This document shows, one piece after another, positions 17,143-23,427 of a stretch of 64,000 nt of DNA. The stretch comes from an uncultured Bacteroidia bacterium (lineage in GTDB: Bacteria; Bacteroidota; Bacteroidia; Bacteroidales; UBA932): positions 129,264 through 193,263 of the forward strand of contig CACZHP010000001.1 of NCBI GenBank assembly GCA_902780935.1, given 5' to 3'. Position numbers and translations under genes: made by a program. The notes under the pieces are model-generated. The model saw only the letters and a program-made list of their open reading frames with translations, had not been told where the DNA came from and did not search any database. The stretch's first letter is position 1. Every line of letters begins with the position of its first letter.

Positions 17143-19695
17143 ATGAGAACAATATTGTCTTTCGCCGCCCTGTTCGTTTCGGTGGCTCTATCCGCCCAGG
17201 AGTGGGTCCCTTCCGCCTGGCCTGTTTTGACTCATTATGATTCCGCCCACCTTCAGCAAGTGGCTCTTCCCCTTGGTGGGATCGGGACAGGAACGGTCTC
17301 CCTTGGAGGCCGGGGTGAGATTCGGGACTGGGAGATCATGAATGTCCCAGGAAAGGGCAACAGCACTGTCACAACCGGGAACGACGCTCCTTTTTTCGCC
17401 ATATTCACTAAGCAAAAGAACGGAGGGAGCGCCACCAGGCTCCTTGCCGGGCCGCTTTATCCTCAGGAATACCTTCATTATGAAGGCCGGCCGGTCAACC
17501 ATCACGGTTTGCCCAGGTTCAACGAAGCCTCGTTCGATGCCGCCTATCCTTTCGGCCAAGTGAACCTGAGTGATCCAGGGCTTCCCGTGAAAGTCAAGAT
17601 CAAGGGGTTCAACCCTCTGGTGCCGGGCGATTCGGAGTCCAGCGGCTTGCCGCTGGCAGTCTTGTCTTACGAGGTGACAAACACTTCCGGGGACGAGATA
17701 GAAGTGGCTGTCTGCGGTGCGATCCGTAACTTCATCGGCAAAGACGGGCAGGATTACACCCTCAATTGGAAGGGCGACAGGATTCCTACCGGAGCCAAGG
17801 ACAACAAAAACGAGTACAGGGAGTCAAGAGGACTTAAAGGCATTTATTATTACTCGGAAGGTGTTGACCCTCAGAATAAAGCGTGGGGCAATATGTCTCT
17901 GTCGACTGATAGCCGGGACAAGGTGACCTTCAGGACATTCACGGTTGACAATAATTGGTCGAACGCCATGCTTAATTTCTGGGATGATTTCAGTGACGAT
18001 GGCCTGATTTCCAACCCGAAGGCGAGCGTGAGACACACTGTAGGCCGTGATATCGACCCTATGGGGGCATTGTCGGTCAAAGCTGTTCTCGGTCCCGGGG
18101 AGACTCACCGGTTCAATTTCTTCCTGACTTGGAATTTCCCCAACAGGATGGCTTGGTCCAAAGAAGTTGTCGGCAATTATTACAGCAAGCGTTATCCGGA
18201 TTCCTGGAAGACAGCAGGTGAGCTCATCCCCCGAATCGGAGATCTCGAGAATAAGACGCTGTTGTTTGTGAACTCATTCTTATCCTCATCCCTTCCTGAT
18301 GTTGTCAAGGAGGCCGCTTTGTACAACCTCGCGGTCCTCCGTTCCCAGACTGTGTTCAGGGTCGAGGACGGCCACATGCTTGGCTGGGAGGGTGTTATGG
18401 ATCACTACGGCTCATGCGCCGGATCTTGCACCCATGTCTGGAACTACGAGGTGGCCACCGCGTTCCTTTTCGGCGACCTTGCCAGGACTATGCGGGATGT
18501 CGAATTCAACTATGCTATGAATCCGGACGGTGCGATGGATTTTAGGGTCAACCTGCCCTTGGGATCCGCTCCGGACCCCACCCAGATCGCCGCTGACGGC
18601 CAGATGGGCTGCGTCATGAAACTCTACAGGGAATGGCAGCTTAGTGGGGACAGGGCTTTCCTCGAGCGCTACTGGCCAGCCTGTAAAAGCGCTTTGTCTT
18701 TCGCTTGGAAAGAGAAAGGTTGGGACGGCAATCAGGATGGGGTTATGGAAGGTTCCCAGCATAACACGATGGATGTCAACTATTTCGGTCCCAATCCCCA
18801 GATGGGATTCTGGTATATGGGTGCGTTGAGGGCAGCTGAGGAGATGGCGAAAGAGTTGAAAGACAAGGAGTTCGCCAAGAAATGCAGGAGCCTTTTCGAA
18901 AAGGGCAGTGCGTGGATGGACGCCAATCTTTTCAATGGAGAGTATTATGAGCACAAGATAACTGACCCCGAGACGTTCGAGTTCCTTCCTGAGGGCTCTG
19001 ATAAGACCCCGCCGTTCCAGCTTGGCAAAGGTTGCCTGGTGGATCAGCTTGTCGGACAGTACATGGCGCATATCTGTGGGCTCGGCTACCTTGGAGACAA
19101 AGAACATATTCGGAAAACCCTCCAGAGCGTAATGAAGTATAATTATGTGCCTGATGTCAGCGGAGAATTCAACAATATGCGGTCTTATGTCATGGGACAT
19201 GAGGCGGCTTTGATGATGGCTTCCTGGCCCAAAGGACGGCTCGAGGTTCCTTTCCCTTATTTTCCTGAAGCGATGACCGGATTTGAGTACTGTGCGGCGG
19301 TAGGAATGATTCAGGAAGGCATGGTCGATGATGGTTTGAAGTGCATCAAGTCAATCAGGGACCGTTTTGACGGGGCGAAGAGGAATCCTTTTGATGAGCC
19401 TGAGTGCGGCAAGCACTATGCCCGCTCGATGGCCAGTTGGGCCGCTGTCCTGGCTCTGAGCGATTTCCATTATTCTGGCGTTGACAAGACCATGAATTTC
19501 ACCTCTAAGCCGGGGCGTTATTTCTGGAGCAACGGATCTGCCTTCGGAATCTGTGAGGTGAGCGGGAAGTCCGTGGAACTTAAAGTCTTGAAAGGCTCTC
19601 TTGATCTCAAGTCTTTGACATTAACCGGTCGGGCGAAGCCCATAGCCAAGGGAATCTCTTTGACCGAAGGAGGCTCAATTAATATTCAAATCTGA
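17143..19695 (+). CDS. GH116 (non-lysosomal glucosylceramidase-like beta-glycosidase), secreted
   Basis: LPLGGIGTG, GSCTHVWNY, AADGQMG, QHNTMDV, FNGEYY, DQLVGQY, ECGKHYARSMASW. Confidence 0.9.
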   Translation: MRTILSFAALFVSVALSAQEWVPSAWPVLTHYDSAHLQQVALPLGGIGTGTVSLGGRGEIRDWEIMNVPGKGNSTVTTGNDAPFFAIFTKQKNGGSATRLLAGPLYPQEYLHYEGRPVNHHGLPRFNEASFDAAYPFGQVNLSDPGLPVKVKIKGFNPLVPGDSESSGLPLAVLSYEVTNTSGDEIEVAVCGAIRNFIGKDGQDYTLNWKGDRIPTGAKDNKNEYRESRGLKGIYYYSEGVDPQNKAWGNMSLSTDSRDKVTFRTFTVDNNWSNAMLNFWDDFSDDGLISNPKASVRHTVGRDIDPMGALSVKAVLGPGETHRFNFFLTWNFPNRMAWSKEVVGNYYSKRYPDSWKTAGELIPRIGDLENKTLLFVNSFLSSSLPDVVKEAALYNLAVLRSQTVFRVEDGHMLGWEGVMDHYGSCAGSCTHVWNYEVATAFLFGDLARTMRDVEFNYAMNPDGAMDFRVNLPLGSAPDPTQIAADGQMGCVMKLYREWQLSGDRAFLERYWPACKSALSFAWKEKGWDGNQDGVMEGSQHNTMDVNYFGPNPQMGFWYMGALRAAEEMAKELKDKEFAKKCRSLFEKGSAWMDANLFNGEYYEHKITDPETFEFLPEGSDKTPPFQLGKGCLVDQLVGQYMAHICGLGYLGDKEHIRKTLQSVMKYNYVPDVSGEFNNMRSYVMGHEAALMMASWPKGRLEVPFPYFPEAMTGFEYCAAVGMIQEGMVDDGLKCIKSIRDRFDGAKRNPFDEPECGKHYARSMASWAAVLALSDFHYSGVDKTMNFTSKPGRYFWSNGSAFGICEVSGKSVELKVLKGSLDLKSLTLTGRAKPIAKGISLTEGGSINIQI

Positions 19696-19702
19696 CATTT
19701 AG

Positions 19703-20431
19703 ATGCGTGTATATGTGGGGAGGGCGGTTCTTGACCTGTTTATTCCGAGATTGTGTGTGGTGTGTGGAAGGTCGCTCTCCCTTCGTGAGGATCACATCTG
19801 TCTTGACTGCCTGGCTGATTTGCCCAGGACCTATTATTCGAAATTGTCCCGGAACCGTATGGCGGACAGGCTGAATGGCCTTATCCAACGGGACTTGGAA
19901 GAACCGGAGCCATATTCGTATGCGACAGCGTTGTTCTATTACAGGGCTTCGACTGGCTATCGTGACATTACCAAGGACTTGAAATACCGGGGGAATATCG
20001 CTTCTGGGAGGTTTTTTTCGGAGATGCTTGCGTCGGAAATGGCTGATTCTGAGTTGTTTTCTGATATAGACACGGTTATACCCGTCCCTCTTCACTGGAC
20101 GAGGCGGTGGTCCAGAGGATATAATCAGGCGGAGGTGATTGGAGAGGTTCTGGCAAGGCGCTTCGGGGCCTCTCTACGGCCGGACGTTCTCTGTCGTCAC
20201 CGGAGGACGAAGACCCAGACTAGGCTGTCAATAGAAGGGAAAGTCTCGAATGTGGTCGGGGCGTTCAGGCTCCGGCGGTGTGCGGACCTGACGGGAGCCT
20301 CACATATCCTTCTTGTTGACGATGTGTTCACTACCGGGGCGACCCTTTGTTCCTGCCAAAAGACATTGCGGGGGGCGGTCGGCCCCAAGGTGCGGATTTC
20401 GGTGGCTACATTGGCTTGTGTCGGGGATTGA
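19703..20431 (+). CDS. ComF family / phosphoribosyltransferase-domain protein with N-terminal CxxC zinc ribbon
   Basis: CVVC...CLDC; IPVPLHWTRRWSRGYNQAE; ILLVDDVFTTGATL PRPP-binding loop. Confidence 0.9.
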   Translation: MRVYVGRAVLDLFIPRLCVVCGRSLSLREDHICLDCLADLPRTYYSKLSRNRMADRLNGLIQRDLEEPEPYSYATALFYYRASTGYRDITKDLKYRGNIASGRFFSEMLASEMADSELFSDIDTVIPVPLHWTRRWSRGYNQAEVIGEVLARRFGASLRPDVLCRHRRTKTQTRLSIEGKVSNVVGAFRLRRCADLTGASHILLVDDVFTTGATLCSCQKTLRGAVGPKVRISVATLACVGD

Positions 20432-20607
20432 TAAATTGTAACTAAAACAATTTATTATGTGTTTTAATCGTTTTTTACTACTCTCTGAAGTGCTTATTTT
20501 AAGGCTGGTTTAAAGTTAATCTAAAATTCTGTTATTGTTTATACTGCGAATAATCAGCGACTTAAATCAGTTAAATCGAAAATTTTAAGAAATTTATTAT
20601 AAAATAA

Positions 20608-20638
20608 TTTGCATAAATAAAAAAAAGCCGTACCTTTG
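20608..20638 (+). promoter_or_regulatory. Complete Bacteroidota promoter (-33 TTTG, -7 TACCTTTG) with no downstream ORF
   Basis: TTTG 20608-20611, 19-nt spacer, TACCTTTG 20631-20638. Confidence 0.75.
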
Positions 20639-20639
20639 T

Positions 20640-20757
20640 ATCGGGTTGAGGATGGAGGTTCTCTCCACTGACAACCCGATTGGTTATTAGTTTTAGTGTT
20701 ATTAATTATGTGGTTAGAGTGAGGGTCCACGCGGGAAGCGTCGAACCTCATTTTTTT
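20640..20757 (+). ncRNA. Candidate trans-acting small RNA (~115 nt)
   Basis: Own promoter; 5' hairpin ATCGGGTTG/CAACCCGAT with inner TGGAG/CTCCA; U-rich linker; terminator-like hairpin plus T7; no credible ORF. Confidence 0.6.
20720..20757 (+). terminator. Intrinsic terminator of the sRNA candidate
   Basis: TGAGG..ACGC-GGGAA-GCGT..CCTCA followed by TTTTTTT; U-tract only on the + strand. Confidence 0.65.
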
Positions 20758-22165
20758 ATTTCCTGTTTTCCATCTTGTGGATGATACTGATCAGCAAGCT
20801 GCCGAGCAGTCCGGCGCAGAGCGAGCCCATCAGCACGGCCACTTTACCCATATCCCGGAGCCTTGACATGATCTCCGGAGCCTGGTCTCCGAACGAGAGC
20901 GTGTCCACGAAAATAGACATTGTGAAGCCGATACCTCCAAGGCAGGCCACTGCGATAAGCATTTTCCAGGAGGCTTTTGCGGGCATCTCGCCGGCTTTCA
21001 ATTTGACGGCGATAAAACTGGCGAGGGAAATGCCGAGCGGCTTTCCGATGAGGAGCCCCAAGAATATGCCCATGCTCACTCCGCCGAGGGCGGGATCGAT
21101 GTGGAACACGTTGAAGTACGACACGTCGGGAATCTCCACACCGGCATTAGCGAGGGCGAAGAGAGGCATGATGAGGAAATTAACCCAAGGTCCCAAGGCG
21201 TGTTCAAGACGGTAGCTCATCGGGATGGCTCCTTTTGAGATCACGCTCATTCTGCGTAGGCAATGCCTCTGCGGGCCGTTCGGGAACTCTCCGGAGGTGG
21301 ACTCTATTCCATTGTACTCATTGAGCCTCTGGATGTACTGGATCCTCTTGCGGTGGAAATAGGCCTCGTTGTAGCGGGGGGTCATCGGGACCAGGAAGGC
21401 CATCACGACTCCTGACATCGTCGAATGGATCCCGGAGTAGTAGAACAGCGCCCAGATCACCATGGCGGGGATGAAGTAGTACCAGCTTCTCTTCTCTCCC
21501 AGCTTGTTCATGATAAGGATGGCCACAATCAACACAATAGCTATGCTGAGCAATCCGAAATTGATTGTTCCTCCGTAGAAAAGGGCGACAACGAGGATGG
21601 CGATCAGGTCGTCGGCGATGGCGAGAGCGGTCAGGAATACTTTAAGGGATACGGGAACCTTGTCGCCGAGGATCGAAAGTATTCCTACGGCAAAGGCGAT
21701 ATCTGTCGCCGTGGGGATTCCCCATCCGGAAGCGGCGGCTGTACCGTGGTTGACGAGAGTGAATATCAATGCCGGAGCCACGACTCCGCCGAAGGCTGCG
21801 ATCACGGGCATCAAGGCCTTTTTCACGCTGGACAGCTCGCCGTTTTTCATCTCCCTGCGGATCTCGAGGCCGACAGTGAAGAAGAATACGGTCATCAAGA
21901 TGTCGTTTATGAAGCTCTCGACGGTCATCCCTTTCGGGAACCAGACATCTTGTCCTCCCGGAGTCTTGAAGAACAGGGAGAGCTTGGTCTCGAGGATACT
22001 GTGGTAGAGTTCTTTTGTGAAAGGAAGGTTAGCCAGAAGCATGGCCACAACAACACATGCGAGGAGAATCACTCCCTGCGCCCAAGGTTGGTTGGAGAAT
22101 TTGCGTCTGCGGTGGTCGAAGTTTCTTATGCCCTTAGTCCAAGTGTAGATAGGGAAAAGTCTCAT
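20756..22165 (-). CDS. nhaA: Na+/H+ antiporter NhaA
   Basis: FINDILM, GWGIPTATDIAFA, LAIADDLIAILVVALFY, SGIHSTMSGV, FALANAGV, GIGFTMSIF. Confidence 0.95.
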   Translation of the reverse strand: MRLFPIYTWTKGIRNFDHRRRKFSNQPWAQGVILLACVVVAMLLANLPFTKELYHSILETKLSLFFKTPGGQDVWFPKGMTVESFINDILMTVFFFTVGLEIRREMKNGELSSVKKALMPVIAAFGGVVAPALIFTLVNHGTAAASGWGIPTATDIAFAVGILSILGDKVPVSLKVFLTALAIADDLIAILVVALFYGGTINFGLLSIAIVLIVAILIMNKLGEKRSWYYFIPAMVIWALFYYSGIHSTMSGVVMAFLVPMTPRYNEAYFHRKRIQYIQRLNEYNGIESTSGEFPNGPQRHCLRRMSVISKGAIPMSYRLEHALGPWVNFLIMPLFALANAGVEIPDVSYFNVFHIDPALGGVSMGIFLGLLIGKPLGISLASFIAVKLKAGEMPAKASWKMLIAVACLGGIGFTMSIFVDTLSFGDQAPEIMSRLRDMGKVAVLMGSLCAGLLGSLLISIIHKMENRK

Positions 22166-22170
22166 GATTG

Positions 22171-23427
22171 TTATTCTCCGTATAAATAGATTCTTTGTTT
22201 TTCTGTAAGGGTGTCGATCGCGATTCCCCAGTCGGTGAGTTTGCGGTGAGCGACTTCACTGTCGATCTCGGCCGGAACCTTATGGAGCATCGCTCCAGGC
22301 TCCCTTGTGAGGGTTTTCCTGTTGTCCGCCAGGAATTTGGCGCTCAGGGCCTGGATGGCGAAGGACATGTCCATGATCTCGGCCGGGTGGCCGTCTCCGG
22401 CGGCGAGGTTCACCAAGCGACCTTCCGCTATGACATATATCCTGCTGCCGTTCGAGAGGGTATATTCCTGAATATTCTGTCTCGCAAGTTTCTCGCTGAC
22501 AGCTATTTCCTTGAGATCCTTGACAGAGACCTCGCAGTCGAAATGACCTGCGTTGCAGCATATCGCCCCGTCTTTCATGAGAGGGAAATGCTCTTTGGTG
22601 ATCACATCCTCGCAACCGGTGACAGTCACGAATATGTCACCTATCCTTGCCGCCTCGCTCATGGACATGACCCTGAAACCGTCCATAACGGCCTCCATGG
22701 CCTTGATAGGATCGACCTCGGTGACTATCACCCTGGCTCCAAGCCCTTTGGCCCTCATGGCCACACCCTTGCCGCACCAGCCGTAACCGGCCACGACAAC
22801 ATCTTTCCCGGCCACTATCAGGTTCGTGGTGCGGTTGATGCCGTCCCAGACGGACTGGCCCGTTCCATAGCGATTGTCGAAAAAGTGCTTGCAGGCGGCG
22901 TCGTTGACCAGCATCATAGGGAAAAGGAGCCTGAACTCTCGGTTCATCGTCTCGAGCCTGAGGATCCCGGTGGTGGTCTCCTCGCAGCCACCAATCACAT
23001 TGTCAATTAGTTCCGGATAGTTCTCATGGATCATCGAGACAAGGTCTCCTCCGTCGTCGATTATAATATTCGGTCCGGCCTCGATTACCCGGCGTATTCC
23101 GCTCTCATATTCCTCGGGGGTAGCTCCGTGGACCGCATAAACATTCAGACCCTCATGGACAAGGGCCGCGGCCACATCGTCCTGGGTGGAAAGTGGATTG
23201 CTGCCGGTGATGAACATCTCGGCTCCGCCATGGGCGAGAACCTCGCAAAGACGGGCTGTCTTGGCTTCAAGATGGACGGACAGGGCAACCTTCAAACCGG
23301 CGAAAGGTTTGGTCTCAAGGAATTCTTTATCAAGACTTTCCAGCAGCGGCATGTGGTGCCTTACCCAGTTTATCTTAAGTTCCCCGCTCTCCCATATCAG
23401 GGGGTCCCGAATCTCACTTTTTATCAC
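22171..23427 (-). CDS. ahcY: S-adenosyl-L-homocysteine hydrolase (short 418-aa type)
   Basis: SVHLEAKT, IIDDGGDL, GGCEETTTG, KHFFDNRYGTGQS, VAGYGWCGKG, NAGHFD, GRLVNLAAGDGHPAEIMDMSF. Confidence 0.96.
   Translation of the reverse strand: MIKSEIRDPLIWESGELKINWVRHHMPLLESLDKEFLETKPFAGLKVALSVHLEAKTARLCEVLAHGGAEMFITGSNPLSTQDDVAAALVHEGLNVYAVHGATPEEYESGIRRVIEAGPNIIIDDGGDLVSMIHENYPELIDNVIGGCEETTTGILRLETMNREFRLLFPMMLVNDAACKHFFDNRYGTGQSVWDGINRTTNLIVAGKDVVVAGYGWCGKGVAMRAKGLGARVIVTEVDPIKAMEAVMDGFRVMSMSEAARIGDIFVTVTGCEDVITKEHFPLMKDGAICCNAGHFDCEVSVKDLKEIAVSEKLARQNIQEYTLSNGSRIYVIAEGRLVNLAAGDGHPAEIMDMSFAIQALSAKFLADNRKTLTREPGAMLHKVPAEIDSEVAHRKLTDWGIAIDTLTEKQRIYLYGE

Follow-up and report, generated by a model that had tools for sequence, protein, structure and literature searches.

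Between comF and nhaA, a 64,000-nt stretch of DNA from an uncultured Bacteroidia bacterium (assembly GCA_902780935.1, contig CACZHP010000001.1, positions 129,264 to 193,263 of the forward strand; called the window below) carries, at ~20643-20757 on the + strand, what is probably the gene for a ~115-nt non-coding RNA that acts in trans, by base-pairing, as a repressor of translation. A promoter, a two-tier 5' hairpin, a 36-nt core and a 3' hairpin followed by T7 are all present within 20608-20757 (+), and this layout is conserved at more than 130 loci, far beyond chance (Table 1). As far as searched, the small RNA (sRNA) family is confined to Candidatus Cryptobacteroides. In this genus the leaders of two mRNAs, fusA2 and ftcD, are complementary to the core, whereas in sister genera, which are without the RNA, they are not.

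An original prediction for this locus had described a -33/-7 promoter with 19-nt spacing, a 5' hairpin with an inner 5-bp stem, an open middle, a 3' hairpin with T7, and a U-tract on the + strand only. The promoter boxes and the strand-specific U-tract are readily seen in the sequence, and folding returned the two hairpins and the open segment between them. The minimum free energy of 20641-20757 is -40.8 kcal/mol, compared with -28.2 +/- 3.1 kcal/mol for dinucleotide shuffles (z = -4.0; 0/200 shuffles as good). The core is devoid of C, contains GUUAUUA twice and has UGGUUA at both ends. A simple sigma-70 and terminator scanner found no match at the sRNA locus; this was expected, because such a scanner models neither Bacteroidota promoters nor interrupted stems.

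When homologues were aligned, the 36-nt core was identical in 31/31 BLAST-ascertained copies from 30 genomes, while both hairpins differed. Loci from L031 onward were retrieved by an exact 27-mer, and core identity there is by construction, except at nine flanking invariant bases. A single core variant, with one A-to-G change, was recovered by a covariance model built from 102 copies of the family. Folded individually, the 5' hairpin reached -8 kcal/mol or lower in 111 of 114 homologues (93 distinct sequences) and the 3' hairpin did so in 113 of 114 (87 distinct sequences); a run of at least four T followed the 3' hairpin in 102 of 114. The covariation analysis proposed with the original prediction showed that both hairpins covary. 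In the covariance-model alignment, 95% of cells are paired and 22/22 pairs (11 per hairpin) have changes on both sides, with 425 compensatory cells versus 105 +/- 8 in shuffles; pairing falls to ~40% when the partner is slid by one to three columns. These figures come from an alignment fitted to the covariance model, which leans towards structure. It was used because RNAalifold on a plain MAFFT alignment missed the hairpins, which length variation misaligns. We conclude that selection acts on the RNA, preserving an invariant unpaired core between covarying helices, as is usual for the seed of an sRNA.

The original prediction had called the gene an orphan. It is nothing of the kind: BLAST found the sRNA in 46 of 49 Candidatus Cryptobacteroides genomes (33/36 plus 13/13 sampled), with one to six copies in each, making it a genus-wide and often multicopy family. 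The source genome has one copy both by BLAST and by covariance model. In 187 genomes of other genera of the same family, BLAST gave one weak match, and in 24 other families of the order it gave promoter-like fragments only. A covariance-model search of 150 order-level genomes returned strong matches in the genus only. An exact 27-mer from the core occurs in at least 120 contigs, almost all of which are labelled as Candidatus Cryptobacteroides or as unclassified Bacteroidales metagenome-assembled genomes (MAGs) from rumen, gut or faeces. Three sRNA-bearing contigs are binned in MAGs of Treponemataceae (CAVEDD010000143.1), Acutalibacteraceae (CAVHJF010000004.1) and Methanomethylophilaceae (CAVERO010000259.1), and are probably binning contaminants. 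A search of window positions 20400-20850 with Rfam 15, at the gathering threshold and at E <= 10, gave chance-level matches only (for example, L20 leader at 18.8 bits, gathering threshold 58.7). These results favour a real RNA, one that has no Rfam family. The core sequence was not found in the published literature searched, and a literature search combining Cryptobacteroides with sRNA did not find the genus mentioned.

Three further observations concern copies of the sRNA and related units elsewhere. One genome (G008) holds at least six copies that share core and terminator and differ in their 5' parts. At L027:1512-1709, two convergent sRNA genes use one common hairpin as a bidirectional terminator. 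Weak covariance-model matches in two genomes from other families of the order, L310:1500-1660 (-) in G345 and L311:1500-1600 (+) in G043, are sRNA-like units of different sequence; one has a sigma-54 promoter and the other TAnnTTTG, and in each there is a terminator as well as a stretch rich in G, U and A but poor in C. They hint at an order-wide class of such RNAs, like the FopS sRNA discussed below.

What precedes the core varies between copies. TAnnTTTG lies upstream in 126 of the 138 copies with enough flanking sequence, at a fixed distance from the 27-mer core: 39-53 nt in 117 copies, which are long forms with the 5' hairpin, and 10 nt in nine, which are short forms without it. Six copies (L020, L040, L080, L120, L130 and L137) and one variant instead have a canonical sigma-54 promoter, TGGCAC-N5-TTGCA, always 19 nt from the 27-mer; rpoN is present in the source genome. 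Three more start 8-10 nt downstream of a tRNA-Cys(GCA) gene, which is itself preceded by a promoter. The 5' hairpin is missing from the short-form, sigma-54 and tRNA-linked copies. The neighbouring genes are housekeeping genes that fall into at least ten unrelated syntenic classes, with Maf, a pseudouridine synthase, an epimerase, a thioesterase, a bile-acid symporter-family protein, glutaminase and FtsX among them; the comF-linked class accounts for 17 of ~150 loci, and nhaA lies downstream in four. Since varied promoter types stand ahead of one core and a terminator always follows it, the family provides a strong argument for a transcribed, trans-acting product. Indeed, at more than 100 loci a promoter of its own and an intrinsic terminator bound the short non-coding unit with their positions kept, as in sRNA genes generally. 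Together, the fixed-distance promoter, covarying hairpins and invariant unpaired segment bear out the original view of a non-coding, trans-acting sRNA with a hairpin-seed-terminator layout.

The best candidate targets are fusA2, which encodes the alternative elongation factor EF-G2, and ftcD, which encodes formiminotransferase-cyclodeaminase, an enzyme of histidine catabolism. The source genome (G000) has fusA2 at C1:205248-207401, outside the window (1066 bits on NCBIfam NF058620 EFG2_Bacteroid, elongation factor G2), and its leader contains a 10-nt perfect complement to the core at -21 to -12. Across the genus, 25 of 30 orthologous fusA2 leaders contain, at -32 to -5, a stretch of 10-13 nt perfectly complementary to the core. 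After removal of leaders at least 80% alike, a perfect complement of at least 10 nt was found in 19 of 23, compared with a background of 5/1116 in-genus leaders and 0/28 fusA2 leaders of other genera. Dinucleotide shuffles of the RNA gave a mean of 0.63 and a maximum of 12 such fusA2 leaders, and 0/2000 reached 19. Consistently, the median duplex energy of fusA2 leaders is -18.9 kcal/mol in the genus versus -14.25 kcal/mol in other genera, and a shuffled-RNA composition control gave z = -3.9 in the genus and z = -0.3 for 27 leaders from other genera. The contrast between genus and outside has p = 2e-10 by Fisher's exact test and p = 8e-8 by Mann-Whitney, both overstated because the leaders are related. 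The matches use differing registers within core positions 5-31.

For ftcD (G000 C2:83278-84987), the source-genome leader has a 13-nt exact match to the core at -18 to -6. Orthologues in the genus have a median of -18.9 kcal/mol versus -13.4 +/- 1.0 for shuffles (z = -5.2; 0/200 as good), and 29 leaders from other genera have a median of -13.1 (z = -0.6). A weaker, partial signal was obtained for a class-IV aminotransferase of branched-chain type: close orthologues gave z = -2.1, and paralogues showed no signal. By computation, then, fusA2 and ftcD provide the conserved complementarity to mRNAs encoded elsewhere that is a general property of trans-acting sRNAs, and the predicted sites in both leaders sit where the ribosome must load.

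Several points weigh against repression by pairing with these leaders. In the source genome the fusA2 duplex is unremarkable (-15.9 kcal/mol, rank 635/2372), and neither RNAduplex over 2372 crudely defined leaders nor genome-wide counts of G-U-tolerant complementary runs gave any excess over shuffled RNAs there. Gene starts were called crudely, as the first ATG of the longest open reading frames (ORFs). Moreover, ftcD was chosen for its high rank in the source genome, which leaves its orthologues elsewhere as the independent data. The co-occurrence of the RNA with complementary leaders belongs to a single clade and counts as one evolutionary event, the in-genus leaders being related by descent. 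The genus is known here from MAGs alone, with the transcript predicted from sequence. Finally, a site of 10-13 nt per target leaves 36 frozen nucleotides unexplained; either more targets or a protein partner must exist.

Other sets of targets were considered and dropped. Perfect complements of core words are two- to fourfold enriched in source-genome leaders relative to dinucleotide shuffles, with a peak at -25 to -5, as would be expected of a global anti-leader RNA. This was not replicated in the genus genomes G026 and G185 or in the outgroup G066; we therefore reject it as a conserved property and regard the enrichment as a matter of leader words peculiar to the species. A transporter regulon was suggested by two sodium:dicarboxylate symporters, DcuB and a xanthine permease in the source-genome top 10, and was rejected because orthologues of the symporters elsewhere in the genus have energies no different from background. 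Regulation of adjacent genes was rejected as well, as no neighbour family shows notable complementarity and synteny is not conserved. There was no susC among the top predicted leaders in the source genome, although no dedicated susC test was made. As separate observations, AATAATTAATAA-type words are unusually frequent in source-genome leaders (-35 to -1) relative to those of two further members of the genus and of an outgroup, and in many genes of this genome TAnnTTTG lies no more than 35 nt from the ATG, a sign of very short 5' untranslated regions. In another genus genome, 10 nt perfectly complementary to the core lie at -16 in the leader of a Cas9-like gene of 1507 aa (L208:12389-16912 (-), G185:C3; N-terminus MKKILGLDLGTNSIGWAVL).

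In the mechanism we propose, the RNA would be transcribed from a housekeeping-type promoter of its own up to the intrinsic terminator, and its two variable hairpins would frame an open, C-free core. This core would anneal to 5' leaders rich in A, C and U, immediately ahead of the start codon (about -30 to -5), occluding the site at which Bacteroidota ribosomes load and lowering translation of the candidate targets fusA2 and ftcD and, less surely, of the branched-chain-type aminotransferase. Additional copies in other species, with a sigma-54 promoter or in one transcript with tRNA-Cys, would place this core under the control of other signals. The freezing of 36 nt implies either many targets that together cover the core, to which the shifting registers point, or a protein that recognises it as well. 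Hfq (PF17209) had no match in the source genome, the one genome checked for it, and RRM_1 (PF00076) had none there either; among 41 genus genomes of at least 90% completeness, RRM_1 was found in one, and RbpB-type proteins are missing from the other 40. A broader scheme, which we offer as speculation more apt to fail than to hold, is that one invariant sRNA serves as a translational gate on a starvation programme (EF-G2, histidine and amino-acid catabolism via ftcD, and possibly the aminotransferase) without Hfq or RRM chaperones. Through its different gene copies, this gate would be connected with housekeeping, sigma-54 and tRNA-Cys transcription. The whole core would be frozen because drifting target leaders stay complementary by sliding along the 36 nt, and the sRNA, FopS and the L310 and L311 units would all be members of one superfamily of C-free anti-leader RNAs that spans the order Bacteroidales.

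The strongest competitor, to which we give a modest chance, is a real RNA that acts mainly by binding protein, as a decoy, sponge or scaffold, with the 36 nt as a platform and the UGGUUA and GUUAUUA repeats as sites. Total invariance over 36 nt exceeds the need of a 10-13-nt seed, the core has internal repeats, and global target prediction gave no excess over shuffles; furthermore, a comparable 41-nt FopS motif in Bacteroides is the footprint of the RRM protein RbpB (PMC11697453). However, the known partners are missing, given the results for Hfq and RRM_1 above, and a pure sponge does not predict fusA2 and ftcD complementarity specific to the RNA-bearing genus. Protein binding and mRNA pairing are not mutually exclusive. 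The location of the locus could also suggest a cis element, either a terminator or 3'-end element of comF or nhaA or an antisense RNA to the 3' end of nhaA, given that the hairpin lies where converging transcripts end and the T-tract overlaps the nhaA stop codon. This we consider very unlikely. The sRNA lies next to comF or nhaA at a small fraction of loci and elsewhere in at least ten unrelated contexts, the - strand has no U-tract, neighbour gene families lack unusual complementarity, and a terminator needs neither its own promoter nor a covarying 5' hairpin nor an invariant 36-mer. An antisense effect on nhaA, which the original prediction had allowed for, is likewise unlikely as a conserved function, since no more than two bases of the stop codon are shared and nhaA is so rarely the downstream gene.

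Two remaining explanations can be put lower still. The absence of ORFs claimed by the original prediction is not literally true, as a 65-aa ORF (-) and a 34-aa ORF (+) cross the locus, neither of them coding-like across homologues. A dual-function or coding RNA would be read in the frame (M)VISFSVINYVV, a short hydrophobic peptide; this frame is open through the core, and a TTG, GTG or ATG is rightly placed in 120 of 136 copies. But the other 16, the sigma-54 class among them, have no start codon, and neither stop nor length is conserved: ORF lengths extend from 12 to above 33 aa, and 81 ORFs are still open at the end of the 70 nt of 3' flank examined, where any stop would lie beyond the T-tract. 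All codon positions are frozen, synonymous ones too, which indicates selection on nucleotides and not on protein, and we reject peptide coding as scarcely credible. Equally little credence attaches to a DNA-level repeat, such as a mobile-element end or a site of integration or recombination, in place of an RNA gene. Such a repeat would account for the multiple copies in some genomes (six in G008), for copies that adjoin tRNA-Cys, a classic integration target, and for copies at contig ends. It would not account for the unvarying order of promoter, core and terminator or for compensatory changes that preserve RNA helices; no transposase or integrase recurs among the neighbours, and the flanks are ordinary syntenic housekeeping genes.

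The trans-acting sRNA favoured here has partial parallels among sRNAs of other bacteria. GcvB (RF00022) of enterobacteria has a long, conserved, G/U-rich and C-poor unpaired region between hairpins that pairs with C/A-rich leaders of amino-acid transport and metabolism genes. The Cryptobacteroides RNA resembles it in its G/U-rich open region and in the amino-acid-related candidates ftcD and class-IV aminotransferase; it differs in phylum, in having no Rfam match, no sequence relationship and no Hfq in the source genome, and in that the transporter candidates of the source genome are not conserved. Qrr1-5 of Vibrio are sigma-54-dependent sibling sRNAs with an identical pairing region. Here too sibling copies share the core and part of the family stands behind canonical -24/-12 promoters, but the sigma-54 type is a minority to which the window copy does not belong, and there is no Hfq in the source genome and no sequence similarity. 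The 3'ETS-leuZ of E. coli is a tRNA-linked sRNA. The three family members that follow tRNA-Cys by ~8-10 nt would similarly be freed by tRNA 3' processing; they are, however, a few copies in other species only, and the window copy has its own promoter.

The closest likeness is to FopS (RF04319) and GibS (RF04182), sRNAs of Bacteroides thetaiotaomicron (PMC11697453). Like the present family, they are multicopy, highly conserved in one taxon and transcribed from sigma-ABfr promoters, and they have a long conserved single-stranded motif and a terminator; they repress translation near start codons (PMC11697453), as the Cryptobacteroides RNA may do. Indeed, the window locus has the FopS arrangement of its own promoter, a conserved single-stranded motif and then a Rho-independent terminator. 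The cores show a weak local resemblance (TATTAGnTTTAnnGTTA ... GGTTrGAG; alignment score 25 versus 16.3 +/- 3.0, reached by 23/2000 shuffles). With positive controls in B. thetaiotaomicron, the FopS model (gathering threshold 56 bits) had no match at E <= 10 in window positions 20400-20850 or in the whole source genome, and the GibS model (gathering threshold 115 bits) had none in that genome; the FopS R1/R1' core pattern, allowing up to three mismatches, was also absent from it. In contrast to FopS and GibS, the source genome has a single copy. Unlike FopS, most Cryptobacteroides copies carry an extra covarying 5' hairpin, the genus almost entirely lacks the partner RbpB (RRM-1), the candidate targets are fusA2 and ftcD in place of the susC-like PUL mRNAs that FopS represses at the start codon, and some copies are driven by sigma-54 or lie behind tRNA-Cys. 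We conclude that this is a new sRNA family of a known, FopS-like type that is absent from Rfam. As to the candidate target, a MAPS pull-down with the MasB sRNA of B. thetaiotaomicron enriched fusA2 (EF-G2) mRNA, for which no convincing pairing site was found (PMC10994844). MasB has no sequence relation to the Cryptobacteroides RNA; the parallel is that an EF-G2 message associates with an sRNA in the order (PMC10994844).

Features of the locus and flanking genes are collected in Table 1. The 176-nt spacer from the comF stop codon to the sRNA promoter (window 20432-20607) is very A+T-rich and has no conserved feature among those tested; the only Rfam match in it is a chance-level one to nuoG-RNA, at 20493-20529 (-).

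Table 1. Features of the sRNA locus and flanking genes, in window positions
Feature	Position	Strand	Basis or remark
-33 box TTTG	20608-20611	+	Bacteroidota sigma-ABfr-type; TTTG or TTGC ~19 nt 5' of the -7 box recurs in aligned homologues
Spacer between boxes	19 nt	+	sequence
-7 box TAccTTTG (consensus TAnnTTTG)	20631-20638	+	sequence; homologue alignment
Predicted transcription start	~20643	+	inferred
Two-tier 5' hairpin, variable	20641-20679	+	fold; outer stem, internal loop, inner stem with GUUCU-type loop
Outer stem, 8-9 bp	20641-20648 with 20672-20679	+	fold of 20641-20757
Inner stem, 5 bp	20653-20657 with 20663-20667	+	fold of 20641-20757
36-nt invariant core, C-free (G/U/A only), unpaired	20682-20717	+	centroid fold; homologue alignment
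Terminator hairpin, interrupted G+C-rich stem, 5-nt loop	20720-20750	+	fold
T7 tract, transcript end	20751-20757	+	sequence; last 2 nt overlap the nhaA stop codon (20756-20758, - strand)
GH116 glycosidase	17143-19695	+	flanking gene
comF, ComF-type phosphoribosyltransferase	19703-20431	+	flanking gene
nhaA	20756-22165	-	ORF; matches Na_H_antiport_1
Adenosylhomocysteinase	22171-23427	-	flanking gene
ORF, 65 aa	20554-20751	-	mechanical ORF list
ORF, 34 aa, TTG start	20680-20784	+	mechanical ORF list

Cryptobacteroides (the 'RC9 gut group' lineage) is among the commonest bacterial groups in rumen and hindgut metagenomes. All of the genomes studied are MAGs, and regulation in the genus can accordingly be read only from its DNA. 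A near-universal sRNA with a frozen core is a ready marker of the genus, and the missing Rfam family would improve the annotation of MAGs. The present analysis adds the outgroup contrast, the ftcD candidate, the census of sigma-54 and tRNA-Cys copies and the near-absence of RRM-1 in the genus, and it provides a concrete connection of EF-G2 with regulation by RNA that can be tested. The EF-G2 of Bacteroides is an alternative protein-synthesis factor induced by carbon starvation (PMC10994844), and is reported to be tied to gut colonisation (PMC6989115). If the pairings of the sRNA with fusA2 and ftcD are true, FopS-like anti-leader RNAs would reach beyond polysaccharide-utilisation genes, and would function even where, as in this lineage, the RRM chaperone has been lost.
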